This document shows, one piece after another, positions 10,143 through 43,348 of a DNA stretch of 64,000 nucleotides; the stretch's first letter is position 1, and every line of letters begins with the position of its first letter. Made by a program: the position numbers and the translations under genes. This stretch comes from Amphiscolops sp. MND2022 (Eukaryota): the NCBI GenBank assembly GCA_964187785.1, contig OZ076409.1, positions 61,816,001 through 61,880,000 on the forward strand, read 5' to 3'. A model generated the notes under the pieces. It saw only the letters and a list, made by a program, of their open reading frames with translations. It was not told the DNA's origin and did no database searches.

Positions 10143-10492
10143 GTTAGTTAGTCAGCAAATTTGATTTGTCAGTAGATTCGTTTCAAAAGCTTTTATATCC
10201 ATACCCTACCTGAAAATATCAGAAGTTCTTTCAATTCTTCATAAAATTAGAATTGATTCTTTGAAATAATGTCTGAACATCAAGCATTTTGACCAAATGA
10301 TGCTTCCAAAGATGATTCAGCTATTTCGTTTTACGCATTTTAAAATGGTTCGCGAAAATGCCACGACTAATTATATGGGATAGCTCGAAAACCCATGGTC
10401 AAAAAGTCCGCAAAACCATAATGATTCTGAAGAAGACGTCGTTTCTGAACTCCGTTGTCCGGAATATACTTAGCGTTGTCCCTTCATTTCAG

Positions 10493-10596
10493 CAACAGGC
10501 GAAAGCAGCGAGAGAGGAGTTTCTCATTGCTTCACGATTGATTTTGTCTCTGAAACGCAATCAAAAAGTTCTGGAGTCAAAGAAATTTTCTTACCT
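10493..10596 (+). CDS. DAO: DAO gene 1 exon 3, copy c
   Basis: Same sequence and splice sites as copy a. Confidence 0.78.
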
Positions 10597-10874
10597 GTTA
10601 GTGAAATTTATTACCCCTGTTTTACACTCCAACGATATAGTCGCATTTACAAAAATGAAAAGATGAAATACGTTGAAAAACTGGAGGCGGAAATTTCGCC
10701 GCCAGAAATTTTGTCGTAGGATATTTCGTCGTATTAGCAAATCCAGAAATTTCGTCGTCAGAAAATTCGTCTTCAGAAAATTCGTCGTCAGAAAATTCGT
10801 CGTCAGAAATTTCGTCGTATTGGTTAGAATAACAGCGTTCACCAAAAGGTATCATTTGAATTATTCAATTATTT

Positions 10875-11860
10875 AACACAGAGGCGAAGCCGTGCTTCGC
10901 AAACACTTGCGAACTTTTGAAGAAAACAAAATAAGCAACATCATACGGAAAACCAAGGGTAAAAGGAGATTAAAATTTCATCAATTTTACAGCGCCAAAA
11001 TATACCCGAAGGGATACGCGTAAGTCTCGAAAACCATTCTTCCCCAACTGAGAACAGCAAAAAACCATCTTTCTCAACGAAACCCCTTTTAAAAAAATTG
11101 AGGAAAAAATTTTTTCGAAAATACTTTTGATGGTCTCCGTTAAGTCGCATAGTGCCGAAAACCTTGAGGAGTCCTTAACTCTCGCAAAACGTTTCGTTTC
11201 CGGCAAAAATTGAGGAGGGGCTTCGGTGAAACAAAAAAAGTCGCATAGAAAAAAACCTTTTTTAAAAAAAAAATAAAAATCGGATATAGCGTGCTGGGCC
11301 TGAGAAAACCTAATTTTAACACGAAAATTATTCCTTTTGAAAAATCTCACAATGCCGGAAACTGTGAAAGAGGGACCCTTTAAGATTTTTTAACATCCAT
11401 TCTGTTGCAAAATTTGAAAAAAAGGGGAGTCTTTGGAGTTTTTAAAAAAGTTTCGAAAAAAAAACAAAAATGAGAATTTTGAACAGTCTCATAGTGTCGA
11501 AAATTCTGAAAAAAGGGGGACCCTTTGGGATTTTTTAACATTCGTTCCGTTGCCAAATATCAAAAAAATTGAAAGGAGGACTCTTTGGGGACATTTAAAA
11601 AGCTTCGAAAAAAGTCTCACAAAGCCGAAAAGTCTCATAGTGTCGAAAAAAGTGAAAACTTTCTGCTTCGGAATACTTGTAAAAAAATTAGCGCATACCC
11701 ACGGGTTCGAAAACGAAACCTCTGGGTTGAAAAGCAAGAATCTTACCACTAGACCACGAACGCGTGAAACGTGCGAGTTGCCGCGTGAAATCAGAGAGTT
11801 GTCGCGCGGAAAAAAAAGCACCCGCACTTTCCCATAACACTTGCTTATCGCAAGTGTAAT
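10875..11860 (-). mobile_element. Non-autonomous Helentron-like element; truncated copies at ~4531-5288 and ~7703-8460
   Basis: Terminal hairpin GCGAAGC-cgt-GCTTCGC (10884-10900), subterminal inverted repeat ACACTTGCGA (10903-10912)/TCGCAAGTGT (11848-11857), internal catagtgccgaaaa/gggaccctt modules shared with other HINE-like copies. Confidence 0.6.
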
Positions 11861-12417: not shown

Positions 12418-13175
12418 GTAATCTTGAAAAACAAGTCAAAATAATTACTAACGTTTTTAGATGTACCGGTGATCTATCCCTGTGAATGCATCATGAGTGA
12501 AAGACACACCTGGCTAACCTGTATTTCAATTGGTCTAAGCAGATATTATCAAAAATTCGAAGTTTCTCTCAATTTAGTTGACAAAGATATGCTAAATGAA
12601 CATTTTTGTACTGCAGATATGCTAAATGAACCTCGATTTTTGGTATCATTGGCTCAATAAGACAAAAAAGTTTGAAATCTCTGGAAAAAATTTCTGAAAA
12701 CCCAAGATTAGACCATAATGTTTCAGCAGCGCTGAACGTATTCTGTCTGCATTAAACTCCCAGTCACTTTGTTTTTATGAGAAACGGTTTAAAAGAAAAC
12801 AGAAAAGGGTTAAATGAAAACTCTGAAAGAAGAATTGTCATGCTGCCAAATTTCAGACTTGGATAATTTCGAGCAATTTGAACTTCAAGCAGTTTGGAAC
12901 AGAGATTAAGTAAGGTTGCTCAGAACTTCATCTAATTTGCACACATGTTTCTTTCGATATCTCTTAGACAATAACTCGAGAAGTTATCTATGCCTCAATT
13001 TGCTGCGAGTTTGAGGTTTTCATAAAGTTTCGACCGTTTCGATCATGGGACTTTTGAAAAAGTTGATAGTCAATTAGTTCGAGTAATTCTACTGAATCCA
13101 TTGATGTGTTTTTCACGAAAATCATCGCATAGGAAAAAGATTTCTCATTTTCTGTACTAAACCAATTGTTTTCAG

Positions 13176-13466
13176 ATCCTGCCCTACGTCAAACAAGTGT
13201 CGAAAGAAGACCTAGGTAGAATGTACCCTCACGTTGATTTAAACGGGATAGCATTTGGCAACCTGATCAGTACTTTCTCCTGCAGACCTGCTATCTACAT
13301 GAGATGGCTGGAGAAAGAGATTGAGAAACTGGGAGGAACTTTTAGTTATGGAAAACATATAGGCCATCTGTCAACACTGGCGGAGTATGACTTAGTTATA
13401 AATACGGCCGCTTTGGGAGCGACGGAAACTGCCAGAGATGAAAATATGATACCAATCAGGGGACAA
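13176..13466 (+). CDS. DAO: DAO gene 1 exon 4
   Basis: ttttcAG acceptor, GTAAGT donor, 291 nt, phase 0-0; contains YMRWLEKEIEKLGG, YDLVINTAALGA and IPIRGQ motifs. Confidence 0.93.
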
Positions 13467-14158
13467 GTAAGTCTAATCGGTTCTTTGTAATTTTTCCACA
13501 CTTCCAAAATAAAAATATCTGTATGACTCTTGTAGAAACATGAGACACGTTTGCTTCCGTAATCTTTTTGTTAATCGCAACTCAAAAGAATTAGGGCGAG
13601 ATTGAAAACCCACTTAGTTTTTTGTTGTGCTTGTGTTTCGCTCTTTCTATTGAAAATTAATTTTCCGATTTTCAGTATGGAAGAAAAAAGTTTTCCTTTA
13701 AATACCTGCCTGGAAAGTTTTGCCAACGTAGATTGGCTTTTCGAAAAGTTTTTGAAAGGCGATTTATACGCAGGCGGTTATTGAAAATCTATTGAAAAGA
13801 CTAAACAAGCCGGCGACAGCTCAAATCGGGGTCCCTGTTAAAGTCTTTCGAATGTGCTGTTGTTGTCTCGATGGAAAGCGAAGATAAATATGAAAGAATC
13901 TATTCCAAGCAACATAAATACCACAACTGAAGTATCGTAGAAACAGTCTGATTGAGTTACAGTTTGTTCACAAACAACTTTCCATGTTTAGTTATTTAGC
14001 TGTGACCTCTGAGGTTGATGATGTAAATTTCTCCCCCAAATAGATTCGGCAGTGTGGGTACGATAGCAGGCAGGGCGTAGTTGTCTTTTCCCACAGCTGT
14101 AGTGTGTCCTAATTGGTATACATGGTCTTGGTGTAACGTGTAAAATGGAAGTACTGTT

Positions 14159-20000: not shown

Positions 20001-22900
20001 CAACCGACAAATAGCTGCGCATACTTTGCACTCGGCAACTCAAAATCAATTATGGACGCACATACCATTGATAACCTCGAACGAACCGATCCTTCCGCAG
20101 AAACTAGAAATCTCATCGCACGATGGAGAGATATAGTAAAACCGGGAGTGTACAGAATATCCGGTGGTCGTTTGAAAAAATATCACGAACCGAGATGCTT
20201 GCGAAACGAGAGAAAAATTATCGAAGAACAACTCCAAATTGCAATTAGAAACCTGCAAAACAAAAACCCAAACCAACCCGAAGGCTTTCAACCACAAGAA
20301 AGGAGAAACGAGCAATGGACGGTAGACCCTTTCTGGGAGACGGACCGCCCACAACGCCCGCAAACCTCGACATCAACGGATAACACTCCGCCCCCAGGAC
20401 AACAACAATGGACACCGATGGAAGAAGGCGAGATCGGATCGGGATCAGAACAAGACCCGTCAGTACTGGAGGTCCCGGCAATCAACTGGGCCAAATACGT
20501 GGGCGTGAAGAGTGTCCAAAACATAACAAGACGAAAACGTCTAAAGTCGGCGCCATATCTAAGGCTCAAAAAGCGTAAAACACTTTTTTTGGAAAAAAAT
20601 TGAAATTTTTGAAAAAAAAATTTCTTTCAAAAGAAGTCGCATAGTGCCGAAAAATGTAAAAGGGGGGGCCCTTCTGGATTTATTAAAAAACATTCCGTTT
20701 TGTTTTCGAAAAAAAAATTATCTAAAAAAAATTTCGAAAAAAAGTCGCACAGTTCCGAAAAAAATCCAAAGGGGGGACCCTTTGGGCACGTCCGGTTTTG
20801 TATGTTTCCTTGAAAAAGTGAAAAATGAAAGGGGGGACCCTTTGGAGTAAAGCTTGCCTTGGGCGGACTTGGCCTCAGGTGCTCTGCGCAGAATTGAGAA
20901 TTGTAAAAAGTGGACCGATCAGTGTGAGGATTGTAGTCTGAAGAAAAAAAGAAAAAAAAGGTCACTGCTATAGTCGGGCATTTTTCCTTAAAAGGAAAAG
21001 GCGCCGACTAAAAACGGGGCACGCACCAAGAGTGGACGCTATCGAACAGAACAACTGGGACCTGGGAAACGCCGTCAGGGAAACGGAAAAACAAGTTGCA
21101 ACCGATCTGCAATTGTTGATTACGGAAACCACCAACGACCCGAGCTTGCTTAAAACATTGGTGTAACTCGAACGGCAACAGCACGACAACATTCCCGAGG
21201 AATATTCCATATATAAGAAGAAATTGTCTTCAAGATATGGCTGGTCTTTTTTGAAGACAAAATTATCGTGCCGAAAAATCTGAGAACAACAATTATTAGC
21301 CCTTTACACAAAGGGCACCCAGCAATAAATAAAATGTCAATGGCGGCAAGACACTTCTGGTGGCCACGGATTACCGAAGCGATCCAGAAGAAATGTGACA
21401 ACTGCGTCCCCTGCAAAATGGCCGGTAAGAGTATTAAACCTAACATACCCAGTACCGAAAAAAAACAGCTACCACCGCTAAGTAAACCAAACGATGAAAT
21501 ACAATTGGATTTCATCGGTCCAATCACCGAAAAGAACCGTAGATTTTACATTTTACTTTCAATGGACCGGTTCAGCAAATTGCCTGCGGCCAGTTTTTGC
21601 AAATCAACGGAAAGCCAAACGGCGGTAAAATTTTTGGAGCAATATATAAATCTAAACGGCATACCGAAAACAATTAGAACGGATAAAGCAACCGCTTTCA
21701 CAAGCCGGTCGTTTAGAGAATTCTGTAAAAACCACCAGATAAAATTGATATACGGAACGCCGTACATACATACCTCAAACGGACTGGTGGAACGGGGCGT
21801 AAGAACACTGAAAGAAATTTTACTGACTGACAAAAAAGCAGGCGAAAATTTCGGAAGAGCACTGGATATGGCTCTAGACGTATTGCGCAAAACACCCCAT
21901 ACAAGACTAAACAAATCCGCATTTGAACTGCATTACGGTCGGGAACCAAACACGGAAATCAGCAATTTATTAAACACTGACACCTTGAAAAAACTAACAA
22001 AAACGTCTATTTCACCCAAACCGGACACCTTACAGGTGTACTCATTCAACGGAGCTGGCGGTGTCTCTGACCAGCTGCCGATGAAACAGAAGAAAGGAGC
22101 TAAAGGAGTGAGTAAATACCCCTTCCTCTTTCACGAAAAAAAATAACAAAACCAAAATTCGGTAGTGCTTATTCGGAAAAAACTCAGCTAGCTATATCGG
22201 GTACAAACCATATCGTAACAACGGCCGATAACAAAATTATACATAGAAAAAACATAAGTAAACCAGTTTCTGAAATTACACAGGAGCCGAACAACAGAGG
22301 AACTGGGCCACGTGGACCGGACGGCCGATTCACAAAGTCACCCCGAACCTTCAACATACACGATTCGGACAGCGAATCGGAAGACACGGAAACGGAATCA
22401 CCGGCAGTGGTTACCCCCAAGAAGAGCGGTGCATTTGGAAGAGTACGCCCCACGAAACTGGTAAGAAACCGGTTAAGCTCGGCTTCACCCGGGGGACCAT
22501 CACCGTCAGCCCAGTCACAAAACACGTTCGGACCGATGACCATAATCACGGAAAACATGACATCCGAAGCTGTCGACCGCGCTATTGAAGACGCTAGGGA
22601 AACAGAGACGGAAATTCATCTCAAAGATCCTAACGGTAAGGCCTCTCATAATGTAACAAAATCCCCAAAAAAGGGGAGGAAGAGGAAGACGAACTAGAGA
22701 ATTCTGAACTAGAACTGCTGAGCAACCTTAGCTCAAGTACTGAAATAGAACAAGAAACAAAAGAACATAGCTTACGCAGATCAAAACGCTTAACCAAAAC
22801 TAACCCAATAATTAGACTGAACAATCCAGTACCTTCTGATTACAGGAAATACCGTCAAAAGACTCAACCAAAAAGCGAACCCAACTACAGAGTAAGGGCA
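17009..22900 (+). pseudogene. Disrupted gag-pol (Gag CCHC, protease, RT, RNase H, integrase)
   Basis: CAKCGKLGHYAKCC, FIVDTGS, DLDYAYGQL, WLDD, TDAS, LTDHQAL, HKGHP..CDNCVPC, LDFIGP, RTDKAT, SNGLVER in PR-RT-RH-IN order; several stops, frameshifts and one insertion; 3' end approximate. Confidence 0.93.
20525..21013 (-). mobile_element. HINE-like element inserted in the Gypsy pol
   Basis: Both diagnostic ends present in reverse orientation; interrupts pol at an AA/TT site without a TSD. Confidence 0.8.
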
Positions 22901-24547: not shown

Positions 24548-24751
24548 AATGCCAGATATATCCGGGACATGGTTGGACTTCGTCCCTACAGAACTGGAGG
24601 TCCTCGAGTTGAACTGGAACAACTGGCAGATTCCAAGCTGGTTATAATCCATAACTACGGACACGGATCTGGGGGGTATGGTTTACATTGGGGCACAAGT
24701 GGCAAGGTTGTTGAGCTCTTCAGAGAATGGATGTCGAAACATGCTGTTTGA
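24548..24751 (+). CDS. DAO: DAO gene 1 exon 6 (terminal)
   Basis: gtttaAG acceptor; VGLRPYR (substrate-binding Arg) and IHNYGHGSGGYGLHWGTS DAO signature; TGA stop. Spliced product about 352 aa if the N-terminus matches gene 2. Confidence 0.95.
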   Translation, partial: NARYIRDMVGLRPYRTGGPRVELEQLADSKLVIIHNYGHGSGGYGLHWGTSGKVVELFREWMSKHAV

Positions 24752-24915: not shown

Positions 24916-27070
24916 AAAATCAAATTTCATATATCAAATCAACTTTTTCCAAAATAGGAAGAGAAAATTCTTAAAAGTGAAACATTATAAGCAATTACAC
25001 AAGCAATTAGAAAAATAACACTTTTCTCTGACTACCCAGCGATCGAAGACATGGTACGCTTGCCAAGAACCATGGTAAATCGCTAGCTAGCCTTGCCAAG
25101 ATCTTACCATGATCTTACTGTCACGACCCGCTCCCGGTCGTAATTTTACTTGCTGCTCTGGAATACCAGGATTCGGCAGAGGACACGGACAAGGGCAGAG
25201 TCAATACTTTTAAACTTTGTTAAACTAATCAAATTCTACTTACAGTACAGCTAAATAGGTGCGAATAATTTTCCAAATACAGAATTCAACGTAAGCGTTA
25301 CGGAAGATTTTCAGAAATGACTTTAAACTAGCTAAAACTTCCGGTCTAATGTTTTCACACGCAACACCGTTTTATTTCCGGTTTTATCTTCTGAGTTTTC
25401 TATTCCAATCTAAATACTAAATAATTTTGCAAACGGGATCATTTTGGCGCTCCACACTAGAATGAAAACACAGAAACGACATTTAACTCCGAGATCCCAA
25501 CGGAGTCCATAAGATCTAAAATGAAAGAACATACAAAAATAGAGTGGAAATGTATTCCAATATTAAAGTAGTTGTTAAATATCCACTTAAAACCGCAGTC
25601 AAGTGATTTTAAGTAAATGTTTACAACGTTATAACAGCGTCACTCAACTAGGCTAGCAACGGGTGTTTCTATTTTTGCGGACCAATAGCGTCGATCGCTG
25701 GCGGAATTATCTGAGCTCATACCAATAGAATTACGCTTGGTTGCCCCTAGCAACGCTTACTAGCTAAGAAAAGAGAATAGAATCGCATACGCTCTCCGTT
25801 TTCACTCCGCCTGCTACTGCTGCTCAGCTATAACCAATCTTAATACGTACGGAGTGCTTACGGGGCGGATTGTAAAATTGTATTCCGTTGCTCAGCTATA
25901 ACCAATCCTAATACATACGGAACGCATTCGGAGCAAATTGTAAAAACAGCAACTATGAAGTATTGTTCTAAACAGAATTTAAACGGGATTTTTCTGAATC
26001 GACGCATTTTAATGGTTTCAGGAATAACTTTTACATAGGAAAAGCTGTACTGTAGGAGAGAATTGAAAAGTTTACCGTGTGTTTTGATCTTGCATTGTAA
26101 AGATAATACGTTAACATCACGTTGCATGAGACTTCCTTTTTAAAAGATTAATAACGAATATCATATTATTACGTTCCGTTGACGTAGTTAAAAGGACAAC
26201 GTGAGGATAACGTTTGGTGCTAGTTGTACCTAAGTAATCCCTTCAGCTAAAGAACACACATGTTACTTTTATCAATGATAATCAAGTATGAAGTTAGTGT
26301 TAAGATTGCTATGAAGTTCCTCCCCTATATTGCGAACAACTTTCATTTTGATGCTTTATACTAATGTTGGCGTAACAACGCTGGAAGTTCATACTCCATG
26401 CCTTTTGCTACAATTACCGTTGTGTTTACGTTTTATATGATTTTGTACCAAATAAGTATTTTTGTCATTCCATGATGCCTAACAGTGGTTCTAAGGCGTT
26501 TTAGTGAAATTCTCTCAGCATCATTTATCCTCTCTAATAACTAGATATTTCCATTTTCCAAAATTCCTAATTCCGTTTCATTTCCGTCGTCATTTTTGAG
26601 CGTCATTCTTTTGCTTCGAATCTCAATTTCCCAACTTGAATGCTGAATAATTGATCACGCCGGCGAGCCTACGCTGATGAAAATGTCAGCTAGACTTCTA
26701 TTTTGCCGCAATTTTGAAGCTCAAACAGGAAATGGATTATCTGAACAAAAATGATTTCAACAAAATTTTACGGAATGGTGACGCAACTAGGAATTTCGAT
26801 ACCTGAATTTATGACGCTGTGCTGAAATAATTTGAATCATTAGCGCTTTTTGCTGAACAAACCCGATTTTACGATACTTAGGAATTTTTAGGTGAGGAAC
26901 AAATGATGCTGGGAAGGTATAAATATGTAAAACATACATGTAATTCATTCAGTTTTAACCTGTTTTATAACAATTAGTTCTGTTCCGTTATCACAACGTG
27001 TTCAAAAGAAAACTTAAATTTTTGAAGAATTCAACTTTTCCAAAGATACTTTCTCTCTCTTTCGGCTAAA

Positions 27071-28449
27071 ATGACAACCAGAAGTCAGAAAAGGAAAGCT
27101 GTAGCTGAGCTAGTCTCAGGTGACTTTGAAACCTCCGTAAACGAAAACTCCCCGTTCGAAAGCCTTGTAGCTAGTTCTAGCAAAGTTCCTAGAATAAAAC
27201 CCGAGGGTCTGGCTGAGATAAAAACATCTCTAAGGAAGGAAATTATGTCTGATCTAACTAAAATACTTGCGGAAAACCAAAAGGAAATGCTTAAACTGAT
27301 AGCACCTTTAAACAAGAAACAAACTGTCCACATGAATGCTCAAGGCTCAGACTCCGAAAAAGAGAATGTTTCCGTAGCAAGGACGCCTACCCCCGTCAAA
27401 ACTCATACTGCGACTAACTCTAAAACAACACCGGTAAATAGTCGTAACATAGTGACAGGAGTCCTCAATGACTCTACCAACCAACCCACGAAAAGATCGA
27501 AACAACAATGCGCATCCAACGAGCAAACAAAAGACCACAACCGCAAACATTTCCAGCTACCAACCTACTTCCGATGCCGAAAGCACTCACTGCTTCGCTT
27601 CCAGTCTTCGATGGTGAGTCTGAAAAGTTTGAACTTTTTGAGGACCTATCCCGAAATAATATCAAAATGTATCCTCACCTAACCGAGATACAAAAGATCA
27701 ACTACTTCCATTCACTCCTACGAGGAAACGCGCTACAAGCGTATTGTAATCTAGATGACACTAAAAAAGACAACCTAGAAGAAGTCATAACGGCATTCAA
27801 ACGTCGCTTTGGCGATTTCCAATCATCCGCTAAAGCGAGATGCGAGTGGGATGCGCTGCATTTTGACCCCACTAAACAGAAACTCCATGAGTTCCTTGAC
27901 GCCCTGCAAAAAACTGCAAAAGAAGCATTCGGCTCAGAAGCACAAAGATTCATTGATAAAGCAATCTACGCCAAAATGCCGGATCACGTCAAGAAGATCC
28001 TCAACAGAGCATATTTGGAAGATAAGCCCTACAATGACATAGTTTTGCATCTTGAGAGAGAAATGAGATTAAACGGACTAGGTGCGCCCGACGAAACAAC
28101 CCTAGTCCCACTCAACACAGTGGACGCAGTAGTGACGGACGATAAAAAAGACCAACAACAACGAGGCCATTGCTTTCACTGTGGCAAATATGGCCACTAT
28201 AAAGCACAGTGTCGCAGACTTCAACGAGAGCGTTACAATATCGCCAAAACAACCACAAAAGACCCAGCCCAAAACGAAGCACCCAAACACAAGTGTGATA
28301 CATGTGGCAAGATGCACAAAACTGAGAACTGTTGGAACGGAGCCAATGCGGCAAATGACCCCAGAAGGAAGAAACGAGAATTCACCATTCCAACCAACAA
28401 AATCAGTGAACAACCTGTACCCACACTGTTCTCCCAGCTAAAAAACTGA
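27071..28449 (+). pseudogene. Gag of element A (starts inside 5' LTR; one frameshift near 27535)
   Basis: LPVFDGE..FELFE capsid motif, zinc knuckles CFHCGKYGHYKAQC and CDTCGKMHKTENC. Confidence 0.88.
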
Positions 28450-28869
28450 AATCGCCGCGCCTACGATTTGGGGAAAAAGTAGACGCGAGGGCGTACACGA
28501 TGGAGGACCCCCCAAACAGGTATGAGGAAGATTTTTTAACCGAATGTAATGAAGAACCAACTCAAGACTGGCAACGCCGTTGGAACGTAGGCATGATACT
28601 CAGGCATAACGTCAGACACCCAGAAGATCCAACGCCACTACCCCAGTGGATAACGGAGTCGCCCGATAACTATGCGACACTCAAAAGACCTAAAAGCCGT
28701 TGCCGGAATCAAAAACAGACCGAATTTATATATATGACAGAGACTACAGATGTGACCATTGGGATGAACCAACTATCTATGATACAAATAAACTATCCTT
28801 CAAAATCCAAGTCTCAAACCCTCAAGCTCAATCTATGGAGATTACAAACCTACCATCACCGCCGTCACC

Positions 28870-30313
28870 GATCCTGAAAAGAACAACACCATCCCCAACA
28901 GTACCCGTCACGAAATCAGCAAACAACGGATTCAGGGCTAACATCCGACGATGCAACAATTTCCGACTGCTATATTTTTTCGTCTTCGGGCGCTCAAAGT
29001 GACTCTCCACTTTCTCAACAAGCTCGCTAAAGCCTATAATATACACAAAACCAATGAGCAAACGAAACACCCAAGGTAAACGTCACCGCAACGCACTACA
29101 CACCACCACTAGGAGGCCAATCACAAACAAACAACAAACCTGTCTGTATTTGCCGAGCCGTACCCTCTTCTACAGTTGAAGCCAACTGACGGCCCAACTG
29201 CATCATTTCGGGTGACACAGGAGTTGCCGAAAACGATACGTCTTCTGCCCCTTCCAACCGCTCAAGGTGGCATCAAGCTCTGGGACCCGTGCTGTCCTTT
29301 TTAATTTCGGAGAAGACTCCATGAACTTCACGCTCGTCTTTCGGAAAGGAAACACCTTCCAACCTACAACACAAGCGTGATAAGAACTGGAAACTAGAGC
29401 CCGATAAATTGGCAAAGAGGAAAAAAAGAAAAAAAACACCAACATAAAGAACACAATCATGCAAGTACACAACTTACAGCCTGGCGTATTCTCCTCCTCG
29501 ACAGCATTTTCTTCTCCTGTGGAGGTGGTAGCAGCCTCACCTCCATGAGGCTCCACACTGACATCAAAATTGCCCGGGACTACCTCGGACAAATCGGGAG
29601 GAACAGCAGAGGAAACATCAATGCCCGGAACAACTGCAGATTCAGTAGTAGAACAAGCGGGAAGCAACGTCGTCAAAGCATCATTGATAGACTGCTCAGG
29701 AACCAACACTGAAGTCACCGGAGGCAACCTCAAAGAAAAACCCAGTGATGATAACCCCACGGGGGTAGCAGAGGTCCCACCCGTGGTGGTAGCGGAAACA
29801 ACAGCCAAGGAAGTTCCAGGTTGAGTTACTGAAAATCAAGATCTGGTTCAGACGCGTCAGAGTTACGGGTAAGACAATAAAGGCTGATCACCAAAATAAC
29901 AATAGTCCTATTGCCCAGGAAGTCAGAAAGATTTTACCAACCTGAAGAAGTGACTACAACTTCCGTTTCCGAAGGATAAGCGTCGTCTTCAGTGAAGCAG
30001 AAGTTAGTCTCATGCCCACTGAGAAAGCCAGAGACACCAGGAGGAACAGCGTCTTCACTCATGACCAAAAGTGACAACAGCGATTGTCAACGCAATCTAA
30101 AAAAGGAAAAAGAAATCAACAAAATAGAAATCACGTCGAGTAAAAGTAAACACGCTAAAAGAAAATTAGCAACGTCATCCCTACCTAACCAGGAAAATCA
30201 TCTAATCTTCAACTTCAGTGAAAACCTATTATGGCATTGATGGAAACAAAACGTCTCCGAAATATTCTACAGGTGGACAAAAATCACCAAGAAGTTCTGA
30301 AGAAAGATGCCAT
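28870..30313 (-). pseudogene. Five-exon antisense accessory gene inside element A (decayed, unknown product)
   Basis: Exons 30313-30185, 30096-29942, 29828-29478, 29363-29140, 29033-~28870 separated by four 88-114-nt T-rich GT-AG introns; three of four junctions keep phase. Confidence 0.65.
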
Positions 30314-30668
30314 TTTGGAAATTACGGAATATGAACGTAGAATATTCGAGAAGAAATCATTGATGTCATGACGTCATTGACCGAGAAAGAAACGGAACGT
30401 AAAATTAGAAACTTTTTCCTATAAGTTTCGACCAATCACAACGCATTTAGCAAGCTTTCCTTTCCCGACTCAAGTCGCACCGATACGAAAGCGAAAAAAC
30501 CGACCAATAGAATTTCGATGAAAATTTCGAAGGAAAGGAAATTGAAAGGGTCATTTGTCGTCCAAATCTTCAGCTTGACCAGCTCAACGCATAGAAATTT
30601 CAAATCTATTCCAGTTTTTCTGCAACTCAGAACCTGAAAATTGTCTCGAAAGCTCTCCGTTAAACAAA
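30314..30668. promoter_or_regulatory. Candidate internal bidirectional promoter of element A
   Basis: Lies between two divergent ATGs, each preceded by CAAA(A); palindromic TGACGTCA at 30369-30376; CCAAT at 30432 and 30504. Confidence 0.5.
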
Positions 30669-31354
30669 ATGAACAGCTACTCTTTAGTCATCGACATATC
30701 TTCTGATGAAGAAAACGCAAAAACGAGCACACCACTGAAAACACTACCGCTCAACATGATTGGCTCACTAAGTGATTCATCAATTGAAGTTTATCGCGGA
30801 AGCGATGCGGAACTGATTTCCACTTCCGGGTCACCTGAAACGGCACCGACGCCTAAGAAGAAAAGGAAAACAGGAAGAGTCACGTTCAATCACCAGCAGC
30901 CGACTCTGACACGGAATACTACGAAGAGCCAGACTCCCCGCAACGCCTACCTTCCCAAAAAAAACGTACTCCTGTTCTGAAGGAGACGGAAAATAACCCT
31001 GTTCTGGGAAATGAAAGAATACCAAACGCGGCAAAATTGAACGACCTGAATGAGCCGTCCTTGGCGGAATTGGAAGCTCTATACGGCCTGGACTTAGAGG
31101 ACCGAAATTACCTCGCATCCTTAGGCCGTGGACGCGGTCGGCACGCAACAAATATAAATCTGCCGCATCTAAAAGAAAACCTGCATCCTGTCGGCATAAT
31201 TAGACCCCCCGAGTGCTGTCCGGAGGAAATAGAACGCCTAGAGAAAGAAGTCCGTGAGTTGGACGAGGAAGAAAGGAAAATTAGAGACATGAAGGCGGGA
31301 AGAGGACGTGGCCCACTCCAGTCAAGGAAATACAATGGTCGCCCCCCCCCGTAA
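30669..31354 (+). pseudogene. Sense accessory ORF of element A (~228 aa after restoring one base in an A8 run)
   Basis: ORFs 30669-30980 and 31037-31354 join in the -1 frame through KRTPVLKETENN; motifs VIDISSDEE, PKKKRK, GRGRG. Confidence 0.6.
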
Positions 31355-33377
31355 TAATAAGGAAAGAAGTCCCACACTGTTATGCTTTACCCCTGTCACT
31401 CGCATCAAGAGGGGCCCTGTCACGACCCGCTCCCGGTCGTAATTTTACTTGCTGCTCTGGAATACCAGGATTCGGCAGAGGACACGGACAAGGGCAGAGT
31501 CAATACTTTTAAACTTTGTTAAACTAATCAAATTCTACTTACAGTACAGCTAAATAAGTGCGAATAATATTCCGAATACAGAATTCAACGTAAGCGTTAC
31601 GGAAGATTTTCAGAAATGACTTTAAACTAGCTAAAACTTCCGGTCTAATGTTTTCACACGCAACACCGTTTTATTAACGGTTTTATCTTCTGAGTTTTCC
31701 ATTCCAATCTAAATACCAAATAATTTTGCAAACGGGATCATTTTGGCGCTCCACACTAAAATGAAAACACAGAAACGACATTTAACTCCGAGATCTCAAC
31801 GGAGTCCATAAGATCTAAAATGAAAGAACATACAAAAATAGATTGGAAATGTATTCCAATATTAAAGTAGTTTTTAAATATCCACTTAAAACCGCAGTCA
31901 AGTGATTTTAAGTAAATGTTTACAACGTTGTGACAGCGTCACTCAACTAGGCTAGCAATGGGTATTTCTATTTTTACGGACCAATAGCGTCGCTCGCTGG
32001 CGGAATTATCTGAGCTCATACCAATAGAATTACGCTTGGTTGCCCCTCTAGCAACGCTTACTAGCTAAGAAAAGAGAATAGAATCGCATACGCTCTCCGT
32101 TTTCACTCCGCCTGCTACTGCTGCTCAGCTATAACCAATCCTAATACGTACGGAGCGCTTACGGGGCGGATTGTAAAATTGTATTCCGTTGCTCAGCTAT
32201 AACCAATCCTAATACATACGGAACGCATTCGGAGCAAATTGTAAAAACAGCAACTATGAAGTATTGTTCTAAACAGAATTTAAACGGGATTTTTCTGAAT
32301 CGACGCATTTTAATGGTTTCAGGAATAACTTTTACATAGGAAAAGCTGTACTGTAGGAGAGAATTGAAAAGTTTACCGTGTGTTTTGATCTTGCATTGTA
32401 AAGATAATACGTTAACATCACGTTGCATGAGACTTCCTTTTTAAAAGATTAATAACGAATATCATATTATTACGTTCCGTTGACGTAGTTAAAAGGACAA
32501 CGTGAGGATAACGTTTGGTGCTAGTTGTACCTAAGTAATCCCTTCAGCTAAAGAACACACATGTTACTTTTATCAATGATAATCAAGTATGAAGTTAGTG
32601 TTAAGATTGCTATGAAGTTCCTCCCCTATATTGCGAACAACTTTCATTTTGATGCTTTATACTAATGTTGGCGTAACAACGCTGGAAGTTCATACTCCAT
32701 GCCTTTTGCTACAATTACCGTTGTGTTTACGTTTTATATGATTTTGTACCAAATAAGTATTTTTGTCATTCCATGATGCCTAACAGTGGTTCTAAGGTGT
32801 TTTAGTGAAATTCTCTCAGCATCATTTATCCTCTCTAGTAACTAGATATTTCCATTTTCCGAAATTCTTAATTCCGTTTCATTTCCGTCGTCATTTTTGA
32901 GCGTCATTCTCTTGCTTCGAATCTCAATTTCCCAACTTGAATGCTGACTACTTGATCACGCCGGCGTGCCTACGCTGATGAAAATGTCAGCTAGACTTCT
33001 ATTTTGCCGCAATTTTGAAGCTCAAACAGGAAATGGATTATCTGAACAAAAATGATTTCAACAAAGTTTTACAGAATAGTGACGCAATTAGAAATTTCGA
33101 TACATGAATTTATGACGCCGTGCTGAAATAATTTGAATCATTAGCGCTTTTTGCTGAACAAACCCGATTTTACGATACCTAGGAATTTTTAGGTGAGGAA
33201 CAAATGATGCTGGGAATGTATAAATATGTAAAACATACATGTAATTCATTCAGTTTTAACCTGTTTTGTAACAATTAGTTCTGTTCCGTTATCACAACGT
33301 GTTCAAAAGAAAACTTAAATCTTTGAAGAATTCAACTTTTCCAAAGATACTTTCTCTCTCTCTCTCTTTCGGCTAAA

Positions 33378-34067
33378 ATGACAACCAGAAGTCAGAAAAG
33401 GAAAGCTGTAGCTGAGCTAGTCTCAGGTGACTTTGAAACCTCCGTAAACGAAAACTCCCCGTTCGAAAGCCTTGTAGCTAGTTCTAGCAAAGTTCCTAGA
33501 ATAAAACCCGAGGGTCTGGCTGAGATAAAAACATCTCTAAGGAAGGAAATTATGTCTGATCTAACTAAAATACTTGCGGAAAACCAAAAGGAAGTGCTTA
33601 AACTGATAGCACCTTTAAACAAGAAACAAACTGTCCACATGAATGCTCAAGACTCAGACTCCGAATCAGAGAATGTTTCCGTAGCAAGGACGTCTACCCC
33701 CGTCAAAAGTCATACTGCGACTAACTCTAAAAGAACACCGGTTAATAGTCGTAGCTCTTACCAAGATCTTGTCAAGGATACCATGATTATGCAAGATCGT
33801 GCCAAGCGTACCATGTTTCACCATGATCTTGGCAAGGATGCCAAGATTAGCCATGATCTTGACAGGGGTACCATGGTTAACCATGATTTAGCAAGATTAA
33901 CCATGATCTTGGCAAGCTTAGCGTGTCTTCGATCGCTGGGTAGAAAAATCAAAAGACAACCTGTTGACAAAAAATTATATTCCCATTTAAAAAATGAAGC
34001 TTTCCGCATACCGAAGTCTAGCGACGGGCGTTTTCTGACTAGTGGAATGATTATTAAATTTACATGA
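33378..34067 (+). other. Chimeric ORF: 3'-LTR copy of Gag N-terminus reading into flanking MITE/host DNA
   Basis: First ~126 aa match the 27071 ORF; the rest translates the MITE and flank. Confidence 0.75.
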
Positions 34068-36899
34068 TGTTTGTCCCATTCGATGTTGCATAAATTAGTT
34101 TGAAGTAACTCCAAATTAAACAGAAAACATCCAGAAGTTGTCAAAGAAGTTCATATGTGTGACGTAATCGGATCGAAACTTGGCGTTCACACCTTGTATG
34201 TTCTAGAAACTCTAAACACATGTATATAACCAGCATGTCGGTGCTTAGTAGCTTGTCTTAGTATTCTTTTCCATTTCTGGTTTTTAGTGAAGCAGTCACG
34301 ATGACTTTTGATATAAAATTAAAACGGAGGTTAGCGGAGACAAAAATTCTAGAAATCAGTGCTTGACAAAGACAAGATAGGATTTATAATAGCTAGATTT
34401 GTTGCACCGATGGCATCACATTAAAACCATGAAACATTTGTTTTTCTGTCACAGTGTACTTTGATGTCTTTAATTTGACACTCAGCGCATTTCCCTCGAA
34501 CAAATCTATTAGTCATTTATGCCAATGGCTCCGCTTCGACAACTTTACATGCAACATGAAAGCATCTTACATCTTGCACATTTCTCTCTGTTCTCTGCCG
34601 CCTTGCAGAAACTGCAATTGCAATGGTGTTAGCTATGGGAAATAGGGGGGTTCTTCGGTTCGATCCAATTGATTACACAGATTACAAAGCAAAAAACAAT
34701 GCGACATTGATGGTCATTCATGCTTTCAGCCGCTGACATTTATCTTTCATTGTCCTTATCATTTACAATTGTATCGTGTTACAATTTGTCAGTGCCAAGC
34801 TCTTAGTCAGCGAAAATTGGTCAGAACTCCGGCGATTCGTTTCTGCTTGACTTTGCACCATTTCTGTAATCGAATACTACTCTGTACATTGAGTCGGCCA
34901 GCCTTCGCTGTAGTCCCAAACATTTTCATGTTTTCTGCTACTTTTACAGGCGCCGGTTATAAAACTATAAAAGTTACAAGCGTGTAGAAGCTCAACAATT
35001 CTCAATATATTAAGTGCATAGATAACATTCTCAAGCGTTTCTTGAAATTCAGTTTCCATTATATTCAAACATTCTTTCCCCAATACATTGCCGCGACTTT
35101 CATCAACTAGCACCAGTTAACATACCACGATTTATAACACAGACTCCTACTCCGGTTTCTGTAAAGTCCAGTCAACTTAATAGACATAATCACAAAGTGG
35201 TAATTCCAAGCCTGTATACTGAAAACATCCGAAGACGGTAAGTTTGGAATTCTCTTCAATTTAATCCCCCTTTGTTAGTAAATTGATGCGCTCCGATTAA
35301 AATGAGCGATGTTCCGTTCTGACAGCGCCAACTTTGTATATCAATCAAACTAACTTTGATCTGCAAAATTGGCCCGAACACTCGTGTTTCTCGTATCAGA
35401 ATATTCAGTTATATCAAATAGTTTTAACTGCAGTTTAGCTCACTGGGTTTGAAAATGGCTCCCTCAACCGAAACCGGGAATTTCGGCGTGATCATCAAAG
35501 TGAAACAGTTTTTCAGAAGAAGTAAGACAAAGAATTTTTCGCTTGAAACACCGTTTTGTTACACACACGTTTGAGTAAAACGAATGTTCACCTCTAAATA
35601 TCTTGAAAAACAAACGGAGTAGTTCCAATGAAACAATATACAACTTGAAAACAAGAGCGGTCTCAAGGCTAAAGAAGACCAGAATCCGTTTCAATATGCT
35701 CAGTAAAACTCACCATGCTGAAAATATCCAAACGCGGGACCATTTAGGATCGAAAATATATATATTTTTTCTTCCTAAACAGAAACATCCCAGTGTCAAA
35801 TATCGTAAATCTCGTACCTAAATCTCGCATATTCGTACATTATTACGTTCACTCTTGAAAGCCTTGATAAGATCTTGTTTATTCTTGCTTCACAAAATCC
35901 CTTGATTTGTTGATAGGAATCTTGGTATGAATCAAGAGCCTCGAGATTGAAAAACTTGCAAAAAAATGTTTTCATTTACAAACACTGTCCTAATGTTCGC
36001 ACTACCAGTTACACTATATTTCTTTCAAGCCTTGCTTTTAGACCAACGCAGAGTATTGTGTCGCGTTATGACCAACGTTTTTGACCAACAGTCACTATTT
36101 GAAAAACACCGAAATTATTAAAAAACTAAACAATCACCCCAAGAGTACAGTGCGGTTTATATTCAAAAAATACCTGCAGAAATAAAAAGCATAACAATCC
36201 TCTTTGTGCTACTGTGCCGTTTATAATTACAAAACACCTGCACTAAAAAAACTCATCAATCATCCCATGGCTACGGTGCTGTTTGTATTCAAAAAACACC
36301 TGCAAAAACAAAACAGTAAACTGAACTGACCTGGAGAAAAGAGGGGGATGGAGATTAATAAATAATGAAGAACGCAGCTGTAAAACAATAACTGCAGCCA
36401 AACAAAAGAAAAATAGGAGATACTAACACCGCAGGATTGCACAAGTGAAAACATCTTTAATTTACCGCGGTGATATAAATTTTAAGCAAAGCTGTGATTG
36501 GTTGCTTGCAAATCATGCCGGCCAGGCACCCTCTCAGATTTCTTTTGCGGTTTTTATACGACGAACGCTGGCTGAAGATTCATTCTGCCAGCAAAACCGG
36601 AGGTGCTTCAACACAAAAAAGCTCTCTTCCTCCTTCAATTCTCTCTCACTTATCATCCCTTGCTCCATCTCTCCCTCTTTCCTTAATTTTCCTTTTTTGA
36701 GTTAATTTTCATTTGGACTTAAAACGTCTATCTTTTTCTCTCTCCTTCTCTTGTTTTGGTTCTCTTCCCAGCAAATTTCTTTTGTCCCAAAGTTTGCTAA
36801 GTTACACTTCTCCCAACGGAATTTTCTTTTTTTCCCTACTTTTCTCTCGTGGAGATTTTTCTCTTTTCTAACTAAATTGTAAGAATAATTCTTAAAATA

Positions 36900-37555
36900 T
36901 AAATTATCTTATAATAATTCCGCTCGTTTCATTCTGTGACTGTTTAAATTCTATCTTAGAACAATTCCGCTGATTTCATTCTGCAGCTGTTTAAGTTTTA
37001 TTTTAGAATAATTCCACTGATTTCATTCTGCGGTTGTTTATTTCCTATCTTAAAATGAATCCGTTGAGTTCATTCGGCGGCTGTTTAACGTCTACCCTAA
37101 AAGAATTTCGCTGATTTCATTCTGTGGTTGTTTAGTTTCTATCTTAGAATAAATCCGTTGAGTTCACTCTGTGCCTGTTTAAAAATTATCCTAGGCGAAT
37201 TCCGCTGATTTCACTCTGCAGTTGTTTAATTTCTATCTTAGAATTATTACGGTGGTATCATTGTGCGCGGTTGTTTAATTTCTATCTTAGAATAAATCCG
37301 TTGAGTTCATTTTGCGGCAGTTTAAAGTTTATCCTAGACGAATTCCGCTGATTTCTTCCGGCGTTTGTTTACTTTCTATCATAGAATAATTACGCTTGTA
37401 TCATTGTGAGTTCCGCTGTTTTCATTCTGCGGTTGTTCAAATTCTATCTTAGAATAATTCCGCCGGTTTCATTCCGCGATTGTTTAAATTCTATCTTAGA
37501 ATAATTCCGCTGATTTCACTCTGCGGTTGTTGAATTTTGATCTTTGAAAATTCCG
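36900..37555 (+). repeat. 47-bp satellite, ~14 units
   Basis: Consensus ATTCTATCTTAGAATAATTCCGCTGATTTCATTCTGCGGTTGTTTAA. Confidence 0.92.
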
Positions 37556-40542
37556 TTCTTTTGCTGAGGTAAATAACAAGTTGACGTTACATAAGTTTAC
37601 CTAAGTAATTTTACCAAGTTCGTCTTGTAATGTTTTTTCCCTCAGCAGTCTTAATGCTATTCAAGTATCCACTGAATAGAGACATTGAAAAACAAAAACT
37701 CGTCAGTTTAAACTAGTACTGATTTGTAAACTGTATTTGTTATGACGTGATCTAAAAACTTTTTCAAAATGAATAGTTTCTATAACTATATGTTTTATAA
37801 CTGAATGACTATAACTATGTTCTGATATACTAAGAAGTGAACTCAGAGCAACTTTTTGTTGAAGAAAGATTTACGGCACTCGCTACTGAAGGTAACAAGA
37901 ATTGGAATGAATACTGCTTTGCCTAGAAAATATTACTCTGTATTATTGCTGTTCACGTGATACAATTCAACAAATTTATTGCCTATACCTCTTCTTTTTA
38001 CAGATAGCTCATTCACATACACTGCCTTGCACTTACTCACGCGTTTCCCTTCGTTCGCACGTACACGCAAGGCACTTCATTTTTGTCAATACTCGGAGTA
38101 AGCTATTGGGACTTCCTTTCTCATTTCTAGTCATTAATAGACGGTCGCCTGAAAGTACCTTACAAAACGCAAAAGCAGCTGTGCTGACTAATGCTCACAA
38201 GAGTATAACAGTCCCCTGAAAATGAAAACAAGAAATCATAAATGAAAAAGTTTTCCTATGCGTGCGGCAACTGAAATTGAGAATGTGATAGTTTGGTTGG
38301 TATTATGAACGGCCACGATTTATTAGGTACGCTGAACGCGCCGCAACTGAGGTCGGTTTTTGTTTTTCTTTTCTTTTATTTTTGTAAGCTTTTCCTTGAA
38401 ACTTTTGGCAAGATCGTAAATTTTCTAATGAAAAGATTTTTTTTGAGATTCTCAACAAAGCTTTCACAAAAGTTCAAGATTCCTATCAAAAAACCAAAAG
38501 TTTTCAAACAAGGATAGACTATCCAAGGGCGAAAACTTATAGAGAACTAAAAAAAAGTTCCAGGAGAAGATTGCTGCAAAGTCCCAAAAGGTGACACGTT
38601 TGTATCGTCTAATTTTATTACAATCAACATAAAATTATAAAATAGTTTTCATTTAACCCCGAGACTGCTTGACAAAAAGTAGCCTACGTTATCTCTTTGT
38701 TTCGCGCGGGAAAATGGTTTCCATTTCTTATCCAGTTTTGAGAAATACAAGATACGAATTGGAAAAACTTTCGACATCTTTTTCATCCTCCTTTTTACCC
38801 AAAAAAAACTAAGAATGAAAAAAACTTTTTCGTCATTTTTAGGCTAAAATGTAGCCTATAAAATGCTTTTGCAATTTACGAAACCAAGGACTCGGTATTC
38901 GGTCTCGGTTCTGAGATAAAGGTGATCAAAGGTGAAAAACACTCAAAAATTGCGAAAGTTTTCAAACTTTTTTGCCAAAAAACCATGCAGTCATTTTTTT
39001 GAAACATTTTTTCGGTGAAAATATAGGCTAGGATCTTGCGCAACGTTTAGCGAAAACATGGTAACCATATCTATTCTCTGTTTTGAGAATTTTGCCTCAC
39101 AAATTTGAAAATTATGCACATGTCATGAAATATGCGAAAAAACTCGACCATATGGGCATCTATTACAGCTCGCAGCCCCAACAAGAGAATGTAATTACCT
39201 TACAATAATGGAAGGTTTTCTAGGTGAGCTAGGAATTTCAGTTACAACAATAAACTCCCGATTTCAGATTAAAAGTTTCAAGCTCAAAAAGTTTTTCATA
39301 CAGTCTTTTTTTCCTCCATTTTGGGTTTGGTTCATGTCACTGAGAAGTAACATGAATGAGGCCTTTCAATTTGTAAAATGATACAGCTAAATTTTATTTG
39401 AGAGTGCTGAAACTCTCATATGCTGCAGGCCTGCATGCATGGTAGTTTTTAAGTAAAACCTGAAAATTCTGAAAACATCTGGCGGTAAAGTTTTGTGCAT
39501 TACTCTGCAGTTTAGCAGTTTCCATATTAAAATTAAAACTGGAAAATTTTACACTTAGTAACCGACATGATCACTTGGTTTCCACAGTTTGACTTCTCAA
39601 CCACTCTTCTGATACAATAACCGCTTCTCAAATTCTTAATATGATGCTAGTTTCTATTGTAGATGAAGTCAATTTGCAATAATATGGCGGTAAAATTGAT
39701 AACTTCTCAGCTGTTTTAAGAATAAAACTGCTTTTCGATGAAACCTGCAGACTTCAAGGAGCTTGATGAAAGTTGCTGAATACAACAGGCAAAATTTTAC
39801 GCCTGAAAGATTCCGTAACAGTTTCAGAAAATCATAGTAAAAGTTGTTGTCAACCTTCAACAATTTGAAAATTTTCTAAAACTGAGTAAAATTCTTGTTT
39901 TAAATGTTTTAAATGTTTTAAAAATCCCGATGACTTGTCAACTGAATCACTCTAAAACTGAAAACTTGTATTCAGAATATATGCTTTTCAAACTTGCATC
40001 TATTCTGTAAAGTATACTAGAGTACATCTTCTTCTCAGTACTTTACAACGGCGACAGAAGTTGGCGAGTTGAAGCAGCTGTCTCTGGGTGTATTTTTTGG
40101 CGCTACAAACCGCTCGTCCAATGCATGCAATAAACGTTTTGGATGAAACACTGATTCGAGGACTTCCAGATTAATAATTTAAAAAATATATCAGCCCACC
40201 AGACCATTTCGCATTTTCGGAATTACGGGAATTCATAAATTTTTACAGCTCAACGACAGTTTTGCTGATTCTACATAGAAGTTTGTCAACACTCGGTACA
40301 CGTGAGGCAATTGTCTTTGAAGAATTGGAGTCAAGAAAAAAATAATGAAATATTGCATATGAAAATGTAATTGAGATGAGAACATCTTAAGGACTAGGTA
40401 AGTGGAGAAAAAGGAAGGGAATAATATTTTTTACGATTTAAACCTTTAGAATTTTATGAACGGTATTTTTGGCGTCAATCAAGTTCTTAATCATGATACT
40501 GTTCATTTTGTACATTTAGCCACTCAAATAAGACACTTGACA

Positions 40543-41668: not shown

Positions 41669-42319
41669 TCAAAAGAAAACCCAAAAACTACAGTTTTTGG
41701 AATCTTTACTTGATAATTTCAACTGACAGTACTCTGAAGCTCCTTTATGCCCGGGGTTATTGTAAGGACTTAGGTTCCTCAAATCACATGCAGACCTGGA
41801 GACCTTCTTCGAAATTTTTGATCTCAACCCATTTATCTGTTCTCCATTCTCCTGACTCTTTGGGGACGAACTGACCTCAGTGTCCTTGTTTCCTGATGAA
41901 GGCATGGAACTTACAAAACTACGGATTTCTGGTATTACCCTGTCAGATATAGCAGAGCTTATAGCCCTGTTGATCTGAGAATGCATCATGGACATCATAG
42001 AGTCCATCTCCTGGGAAAGTCTCAGATTAAACTCAGTCGTAAACGTTTCTTTTGATTGTAAAACTTCATCTCGTCTAGGAATGTTGTCTTCACAACTAAT
42101 ATTTCCAAAATCACCTTCATGGTGAAAGTTATCCATTGGACGCTGATCGGACTCAATGCCATATTGGACTGTTGATTCCTCAATACCATTAGCTAGTTCT
42201 CTCTCAATTGGATTAATGTTTTCATTGCCTACTATTATGTCTAAATTATCAAAGTCAGACATCATGTCCATTTCTCTAGATCTCCTTGCTTTCGCTTTCT
42301 GTCTCCTCGTAGAAGGCAT
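41669..42319 (-). CDS. LTR-encoded Gag N-terminal domain ORF (216 aa, last ~30 aa from flank)
   Basis: Homologous to the start of the 59647 ORF (RLSQEMDSMM..QINRAISSAISDRVIPEI vs RISREMDEMM..QIQRAINDAISNQVLPQI). Confidence 0.7.
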   Translation of the reverse strand: MPSTRRQKAKARRSREMDMMSDFDNLDIIVGNENINPIERELANGIEESTVQYGIESDQRPMDNFHHEGDFGNISCEDNIPRRDEVLQSKETFTTEFNLRLSQEMDSMMSMMHSQINRAISSAISDRVIPEIRSFVSSMPSSGNKDTEVSSSPKSQENGEQINGLRSKISKKVSRSACDLRNLSPYNNPGHKGASEYCQLKLSSKDSKNCSFWVFF

Positions 42320-43348
42320 AAGAAATGGTTACAAGGGAAGAATCGAATTGAATCTTTATCTTGTAAAACAAATTTGGTATCGGTTGTATAAATGAACAAT
42401 GACTAGTTTCAACAAGTTGTGTCGGGACTTGAGGTCCCAGGTATTTATATATTCATATTTGCATGACTAGCAACTTTATGAGTGTCATGTTCTAAAAATA
42501 GCCTGAAGGGCTTTCTAGCAACAATGACGTCATATTTGCAAATCGACTACAAAGCAATATCTTGGCGACACAAGTGACTGATGACATGAAGGCGTTGATA
42601 TTCAAGTGTCCTCAAAAACAAGCATCAATACATGTAACTACTTTCAAAATTCCATGCAGCTATACATGGAACTATATTTTACATGTGAAATAGTGTACAT
42701 TGAGTATCTATATATTTCAACATAACACTCCTACTATTGTAAGGCCTACTAGTACACAGGATTGCTATTTAAATTCGCAAATTCTTCATTCATGAGTACC
42801 AATATTTTGAATCAGGACTCAGTACCCATTCATTGTGATTGATTGGTGACGTAAGGCAAATAGCCTCGGTGACCTTTAAAGTAAAGCACTTTAGTTAAAA
42901 AATGGAAACTGCAACGTAATTGGTCTGAATGAGTTTTGGACAGCGTGTTCAGTGCGACAGGCGAGGAAATATTTGAACACGTTTCCTCTGCCTGTACGGC
43001 TTGGAGTCCATTATTAACAACGCATCAATTTTCTACATGTATATTTATACTAAAGCAACAACATATCAACTTGATAATACTAATTTGAGCCGAACTGGAA
43101 TGATTGCAAAATTCGGTCCGATTAATAATTTGGTTTGCATTATCAAACAAAATATTAACATCAATATTAATATGAAACAAAGCTCCCAGTTTAAGTTTTA
43201 AATTCTTGGGTTGGGCGTCCTCCCTGCGGTTAAGGAAAATTGTTCCCAGCAGGGATTCTTTATTCAAGAAGGATCGTACCAGGGATAGTGTTATAATGAT
43301 TGTATGAGATGGAGTACCAATTCCCATCGCATGCGGCCGCCTGCGACA
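41761..43348 (-). mobile_element. Solo long LTR related to element B
   Basis: Minus strand begins TGTCGCAGG (same as the 58049 LTR) and ends CCTTACA; flanks GTTAT/TTTAT (TSD with one mismatch); TATA box ~125 nt before the ORF. Confidence 0.75.

Follow-up and report, generated by a model that had tools for sequence, protein, structure and literature searches.

An LTR retroelement in the genome of Amphiscolops sp. MND2022 carries, on the strand opposite to its own genes, a row of coding-like blocks separated by introns, and the question raised by this locus is whether these blocks are the remains of a functional gene, what protein such a gene would encode and what use a retroelement could make of it. 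The region was analysed as a window of 64,000 nucleotides (contig OZ076409.1, positions 61,816,001 to 61,880,000), for which a preliminary description, made from the letters alone, had proposed five coding blocks and four introns on the minus strand. The features found in the element are collected in Table 1.

Table 1 Features of the retroelement and of its antisense gene, in coordinates of the window
Feature	Position	Strand	Details
Target-site duplication CTTAC, 5 bp	25114..25118; second copy 33757-33761	+
5' LTR	25119..27449	+	TG...CA, 2.33 kb; includes the first ~380 nt of gag; self-BLAST
gag	27071..28449	+	start within LTR; two frames in window copy
pol, 5' remnant	28410..28902	+	remainder removed by deletion
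Deletion junction	28903..28911		9-nt microhomology common to pol and exon 5
Exon 5, first 131 nt	28903..29033	-	578 nt in full copies, there encoding a C2H2 zinc finger
Intron 4	29034..29139	-	106 nt, phase 1
Exon 4	29140..29363	-	224 nt; 225 in most copies; frameshift near 29252
Intron 3	29364..29477	-	114 nt, phase 1; in-frame alternative donor 63 nt upstream
Exon 3	29478..29828	-	351 nt, S/T/P- and acid-rich, open frame
Intron 2	29829..29941	-	113 nt, phase 1; position kept in all three clades
Palindrome GACGCGTC in intron 2	29851..29858		25/29 loci; GGCGCGCC in 2; broken in 2
Conserved hairpin in intron 2	29867..29916	+	loop hexamer TGATCA at 29885-29890
Exon 2	29942..30096	-	start ATG at 30062
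Intron 1	30097..30184	-	88 nt, 5' untranslated region; donor uncertain
Exon 1 of the preliminary description	30185..30313	-	non-coding, possible 5' untranslated exon
Candidate two-way promoter region	30330..30660		TGACGTCA at 30369, CCAAT at 30432 and 30504; motif reading alone
ORF3, second extra gene	30669..31354	+	acidic, 230-301 aa in open copies; frameshifted in window copy
Polypurine tract	31407..31417	+
3' LTR	31418..33756	+	last three bases unlike 5' LTR end

The carrier was characterised from its ends and from the order of its domains. In the window element, two TG...CA LTRs, a short target-site duplication and a polypurine tract were found, the end bases of the 3' LTR being altered, and the two LTRs differ at 48 of 2330 alignment columns. 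The gag region gave matches to DUF1759, Retrotrans_gag and a zinc knuckle. In a full copy, a frame of 1,792 aa contains Pfam domains in the order protease, RT, RNase H, integrase, by which the carrier is identified as a Ty3/gypsy LTR retrotransposon. Full copies are arranged as gag, pol and then the antisense gene, which stands tail to tail with pol and ends ~150 bases past the pol stop. From the window copy, ~7.8 kb are missing at position 28903 (7,843 bases in a comparison copy). The end of the gene, placed near 28870 in the preliminary description, was corrected accordingly, as 28870-28902 is pol sequence past the deletion junction. An amplified non-autonomous subfamily was also considered for this deleted form and was ruled out, the junction occurring only once in the genome.

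Some further properties of the element and its surroundings were recorded. Gag starts inside the LTR, so that ~125 of its codons are duplicated at both ends of the element (27071-27449 and 33378-33756); comparable gag-like starts were seen in the window at 59617 (plus strand) and 41669-42328 (minus strand), as well as in intron-rich families. ORF3 is placed between the antisense gene and the 3' LTR, often continues into the LTR and begins with a (L/V)IDISS-acidic motif, which we take to resemble a SUMO-interacting motif. This short, acidic frame was found in the window family and in six other loci (L029, L002 and the L082-L092 group); it had no Pfam match and was not found by pattern search in three loci of the third clade described below. 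Elsewhere in the window, pieces of a host FAD-dependent oxidase (DAO-like) gene were recognised by Pfam at 13161-13490 and ~24550-24750, apparently scattered around inserted elements. Between 17192 and 22700 lies a Gypsy element distinct from the present one and itself frameshifted, in which gag, protease, RT, RNase H and integrase were recognised; near 20516-20838, its sequence is broken up by an element with inverted repeats. At 2165-11570, a unit of 3.1-3.2 kb occurs in three tandem copies at 98-100% identity, together with a 15-base minisatellite, and a tandem repeat of 47 bases in 12 overlapping copies lies at 36858-37619.

The exon and intron structure was then compared between copies in the same genome, where 40 of 1,521 candidates were scored, 43 matches were obtained and 30 loci were taken. 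All four proposed introns were recovered at their places and with the GT donors and AG acceptors originally quoted. Their description as T-rich holds for three of them (47-53% T, compared with 23-33% in exons 2-5); intron 2 is lower, at 38%. For introns 1-4, GT was kept in 30, 30, 30 and 29 and AG in 28, 30, 30 and 29 of the 30 genomic copies, in total 236 of 240 splice dinucleotides. Since other GT/AG pairs within the introns were equally kept in 31 of 51 cases, retention among such close copies is modest evidence when taken alone; the strong evidence for a gene consists of selection together with intron positions common to distant families.

Several details of the gene model had to be revised. 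The outermost block, first read as a coding exon 1, is interrupted by stops in all 30 copies, with one or more in each frame and 1-3 in the best one, and its AG|GT reads TTAG in the window copy only. The conserved start is instead the ATG in exon 2, found in 30/30 copies; the acceptor of intron 1, just before this ATG, is kept across families, and exon 2 encodes a SG(H/N)ET motif common to the intron-rich families. No base has to be removed at junction 3, as junctions 2, 3 and 4 are all in phase 1 and in frame. The real break is a one-base frameshift inside exon 4, so that the peptide LEGVSFPKDEREVHG given in the preliminary description represents the wrong frame. C>T changes are likewise not needed to account for stops, exons 2, 3 and 5 being without stops in the conserved frame.

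In full copies, the gene comprises seven coding exons of 121, 351, 225, 578, 621, 76 and 1,343 bases (3,315 nt, ~1,104 codons), intact copies having three exons more than are seen in the window. Of 20 full copies, 5 are open over the whole gene, and a sixth candidate has an internal stop and a lost acceptor. The window copy retains 276 of ~1,104 codons and represents, in broken form, the 5' quarter of an antisense gene with introns.

Selection was assessed between two subfamilies. For the antisense gene, a dN/dS of 0.197 was obtained (bootstrap 0.155-0.245), for the 3' part of pol 0.135 (0.10-0.17; 19 of the 20 copies) and for the 276 codons left in the window 0.286 (0.175-0.473); the core exons are the most constrained (0.09-0.13). 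Variants found in a single copy had a pN/pS of 0.83, compared with 0.17 for shared variants. All 18 stops and all 24 exon frameshifts were private to single copies, and the introns carry 12 shared non-triplet indels. The antisense gene is under purifying selection, and the pattern is that of a gene which is important during replication and decays after insertion. Constraint imposed by another reading frame was rejected as a source of these values, as shifted and opposite frames gave dN/dS of 1.2-1.6; the exception is the opposite-strand frame sharing third positions (0.27).

These data also bear on a rival explanation, namely that an old hAT transposon or a host gene was inserted and has been copied along as a passenger without use. 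The window copy is indeed dead, and of the 20 full copies, 15 are damaged by one or more stops, frameshifts or splice-site losses, as would be expected of a passenger. Against this, no lesion is found in more than one copy, the changes that copies have in common are mainly synonymous, and both reading frames and intron positions have been maintained between families with 25-50% protein identity, by which this explanation is largely refuted already and hardly credible. GT/AG positions, frame and a dN/dS below 1 across genomic copies had been named at the outset as the check on the proposed gene, and all three held. Given conserved splice sites and frame, a dN/dS well below 1 and Wnt genes in the host genome, the evidence supports reading the feature as an accessory gene with several exons that an animal LTR family carries in antisense.

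For homologues in other families, exon 8 was used as query, by which 442 cluster representatives were obtained at E ≤ 0.001; none of the cluster members examined bore a name, and a word-based search with exon 8 among longer proteins found no homologue. The genomic neighbourhood was inspected at 9 and a further 19 loci from many families, and at 28/28 (9/9 and 19/19) the homologue lies antisense beside integrase and RT and inside an LTR element, the loci having been chosen from high-scoring matches, not at random, so that copies outside LTR elements may be missed. Seven complete LTR pairs among these loci were 97.8-99.9% identical.

RT and antisense gene trees share three deep clades, with Mantel r of 0.82 and 0.79 (22 of 30 loci; 8 were omitted for short matches), and have just 6 of 19 splits in common, with 1-2 strongly supported conflicts within clades. 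From this pattern we infer one capture followed by recombination. Between the deepest clades, the antisense proteins are ~32% identical, compared with 74% for RT and 52% for integrase. Intron 5 was found at the same codon position, in the same phase and with GT-AG in 21 of 22 loci of the two intron-rich clades (lengths 99-204), and is absent in 8/8 loci of the third clade. In one clade (L051-L062, L130-L131, L136-L140), the protein core is a single exon of ~870 codons with introns in the 5' part only, which is a case of intron gain or loss inside a retroelement. In the other families, the first coding intron alone was taken from a home-made splice predictor, which recovered 2 of 3 control introns and is unreliable for the middle 5' introns of these families.

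Two of the homologous proteins bear on the spread of the gene family. Their best matches in this genome were only ~49-53% (P0144) and 35% (P0095) identical among the best candidates, so both are probably from other species and, judged by these identities, the gene family probably extends beyond this genome. A metagenome scan with P0144 gave 61 pattern matches, none of which was confirmed.

Sequence comparison did not name the protein. Pfam scans of exons and homologues yielded no family above cut-off and no hAT family, and PDB sequence searches gave no useful match. DUF4371 was not matched anywhere in the genome, its control being equally blank. The CxxC...HxxxxH finger is kept, with C2H2 Pfam matches below threshold and no zf-BED, and a basic C-terminal tail is retained. 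Structure prediction, which had been suggested at the outset, was informative for a homologue and less so for the window family itself. The model was made for P0221, the 861-aa core, encoded in a single exon, of a homologue that shares 28-32% identity with exons 5, 6 and 8 of the window family; its pLDDT is 81.6. In Foldseek, ranks 1-10 were all Hermes (best E 1.1e-4, probability 1.0); by VIA, Hermes was found with Z 12.5, rmsd 5.1 and 400 aligned residues, the next match being at 6.6. TM-scores against Hermes ranged from 0.3 (query) to 0.5 (target), and the best match in the viral library was a hAT protein. For exon 8 of the window family, VIA again placed Hermes first, weakly (Z 6.2, rmsd 7.1, 185 aligned), and Foldseek gave no match at E ≤ 0.001. 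ESM Atlas neighbours with assigned families were mostly of hAT type, all under 0.9; with exon 8, there was no match at 0.9 and the families were mixed. On these models, the antisense protein very probably has a hAT transposase fold.

Catalytic residues were sought at the places of the hAT D, D and E, taken here as the end of strand 1, the end of strand 4 and the stretch past the C-terminal helix. No conserved D/E was seen at the end of strand 1 and no conserved E after the C-terminal helix, while the end of strand 4 has G in 20 of 25 rows, the positions having been placed through secondary structure and hAT motifs rather than by residue-level superposition. The hAT sequence signature (Dimer_Tnp_hAT; TRW and P...SER motifs) is absent from the antisense proteins scanned, and a profile comparison with 14 hAT transposase frames of the same genome gave an hhalign probability of 0.14 and a best hmmsearch E of 0.23. 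The predicted protein has probably lost catalysis, a conclusion held nearly as firmly as the fold, and is likely a hAT-derived pseudo-transposase, with the build of a hAT enzyme and without its catalytic residues or sequence signature. If the protein were still an active nuclease or recombinase whose active site is of an unusual kind, this would account for the several acidic columns that are well conserved elsewhere in the protein (E268, E278, E395, D462, D576 and E608 in P0221 numbering) and for the strongest constraint falling on the core exons; such activity is nevertheless very improbable, as no acidic column is conserved at the presumed hAT catalytic places and the elements keep a complete integrase.

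A retained fold with seemingly lost catalytic residues is also what would be expected of a decoy or weapon, which, as a dominant-negative mimic of a transposase, would titrate anti-transposon proteins or small-RNA responses of the host or interfere with rival hAT transposons. Targets would be plentiful, the genome containing at least 150 hAT frames (150 of 150 scored matches were over cut-off), and the fast divergence of the protein would fit an arms race. Mixed oligomers are unlikely, given that sequence comparison detected no resemblance of the protein to the 14 hAT frames of the genome with which it was compared, and a benefit common to all elements should be weakly selected, yet the dN/dS is near that of pol. 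We regard such a decoy as improbable.

The reading that we prefer, with a probability of roughly one half, is that a whole Ty3/gypsy clade carries an antisense gene whose product has a hAT fold, is likely catalytically dead and likely acts as a nuclear DNA-binding accessory factor keeping its own family transcribed or unsilenced. An ancestral element would have captured a hAT transposase gene in backward orientation. Antisense introns escape the spliceosome on the genomic RNA, as this RNA reads the other strand, and hence survive copying. An internal promoter, for which the region with CCAAT and TGACGTCA is a candidate, possibly shared with the sense ORF3, very probably makes a spliced antisense mRNA. 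The protein would enter the nucleus and bind DNA or chromatin of its own family, whereby transcription would be kept or silencing blocked. In this process, zinc finger and transposase scaffold might bind the element's DNA or chromatin and the acidic low-complexity N-terminus might recruit host factors, a division of labour to which we give a little under even odds; a role as regulator is proposed on anatomical grounds and by analogy.

The same domains could serve integration instead, with the dead transposase scaffold binding cDNA ends or integrase and bringing them to the nucleus or to chosen chromatin. Such an integration chaperone would suit the origin in an end-binding, integrase-like fold, the kept zinc finger and basic tail and the inheritance together with pol, and nuclear import is one of the ideas put forward for the plant antisense genes in the available text of PMC7264820. 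The protein diverges much faster than RT or integrase, and a separate mRNA would leave it no obvious route into its own particle, so that we consider this role unlikely, though less so than a decoy.

Intron 2 needs separate discussion, as it is the least diverged intron (0.06, compared with 0.08-0.18) and contains a conserved hairpin. Within a clade of 13 sequences, 8 of 19 pairs were changed on both sides (shuffles 2.8, 0/500; slid controls 1-4), the structure having been derived from the same alignment and related sequences inflating covariation counts. A perfectly self-complementary loop hexamer was present at 27 of 29 loci and in 67 of 377 background windows, and the hexamer differs by clade (TGATCA 8, AGGCCT 12, TGGCCA 7, imperfect 2); the counts are not independent, the 29 loci being related to one another and having the 8-base motif as their common anchor. 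The palindrome of the same intron overlaps a branch-point-like CTGAC on the minus strand. An Rfam search over the element gave three chance-level matches, none of them on the hairpin.

In the 13-sequence clade, the genomic-RNA strand is favoured (consensus -12.6 vs -6.5 kcal/mol; 15 G-U vs 4 A-C cells), and in the window's own clade the strands are not distinguished (-13.8 vs -15.1 kcal/mol). From these sequence features, the hairpin probably acts on the genomic RNA, and the chances seem balanced that intron 2 doubles as a genomic-RNA hairpin, which may be a kissing-loop dimerisation or packaging signal. A splicing element or a protein site is possible as well. The DIS of HIV-1 is a retroviral kissing-loop dimerisation signal. 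Signals of this kind are known from retroviruses and, as reported in PMC5454406 and PMC6844567, from Ty1. The known signals share with the present hairpin a self-complementary loop in genomic RNA and lie near the 5' end, whereas the intron-2 hairpin lies ~1.5 kb before the 3' LTR and within an intron of the opposite strand. If the proposal is true, the same bases form an intron on one strand and a genomic-RNA structure on the other, and the hairpin suggests that antisense introns are useful in offering room for signals of the RNA read from the opposite strand. The fullest version of the history, in which a Gypsy clade captured and disarmed a hAT transposase before host species split, used it as a spliced accessory factor and hid an RNA dimerisation or packaging signal in its intron, is tentative and is held less firmly than the accessory factor as such.

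For decades, LTR retrotransposons of plants and of one fungal group have been known to carry extra genes in antisense, to which no function has been assigned. The gene brtn of Boty-like elements in Botrytis and Sclerotinia, reportedly described by Zhao et al. in 2011, occupies, like the present gene, the antisense strand of a Ty3/gypsy element, after pol and before the 3' LTR. An antisense gene at this place is given for Boty in Botrytis in the available text of PMC7264820. In plant Ty3/gypsy elements, genes of this position and orientation (aORF-3R) are gene23 of Grande, that of RIRE2, TRP28 of Retand (PF04195) and that of PvRetro13; as far as the available text of two papers goes (PMC7264820, PMC11963269), they are found in most copies, are conserved like pol and have no assigned function, and gene23 is reported to be nuclear and transcribed from its own promoter. 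The gene described here has the same place and orientation and is likewise conserved like pol, in copies that were collected through the gene itself. It differs in its animal host, its length of ~1,100 aa, its introns, of which there are up to seven, and its predicted whole hAT-transposase fold. The word 'intron' does not occur in the main text of the two plant papers. Unlike TRP28 of Retand, the antisense protein has no TRP28 or other Pfam domain, Transposase_28 (PF04195) being without match in the scans of exons and homologues. In the literature searched, which covered few subscription journals and no Repbase or repeat-database reports, we found no animal LTR element with an antisense gene that is derived from hAT or has several introns, and the available text of PMC5408684, PMC6451197, PMC12477816 and PMC11410931 contains nothing comparable for LTR elements. 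The present gene adds an animal case, in many young copies, and a predicted fold through which DNA binding, oligomer state and the lack of cleavage become directly testable; as families differ in their introns, they form a natural series in which the gain or loss of introns within a retroelement can be followed.

Compared with Hermes (PDB 8edg, 8sjd, 4d1q, 2bw3), the predicted order of parts is the same, with an N-terminal zinc finger, a helical domain and an RNase H-like core with a large helical insertion, whereas the antisense protein is only 8-12% identical, does not conserve the DDE positions and has an extra low-complexity N-terminus of ~240 aa as well as a long C-terminal helix with a basic tail. 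Its gene lies within an LTR element and was not seen as a DNA transposon. Among the ESM Atlas neighbours, ZBED, FAM200 and ZNF862-like families were found. In these domesticated host hAT proteins, a transposase has been turned into a likely non-cutting DNA-binding protein. If our reading is true, a transposase has here been domesticated by a retrotransposon instead of by the host, so that, in contrast to the host-domesticated hAT proteins, the domesticator would itself be a mobile element, and the gene is present in many copies and continues to move.
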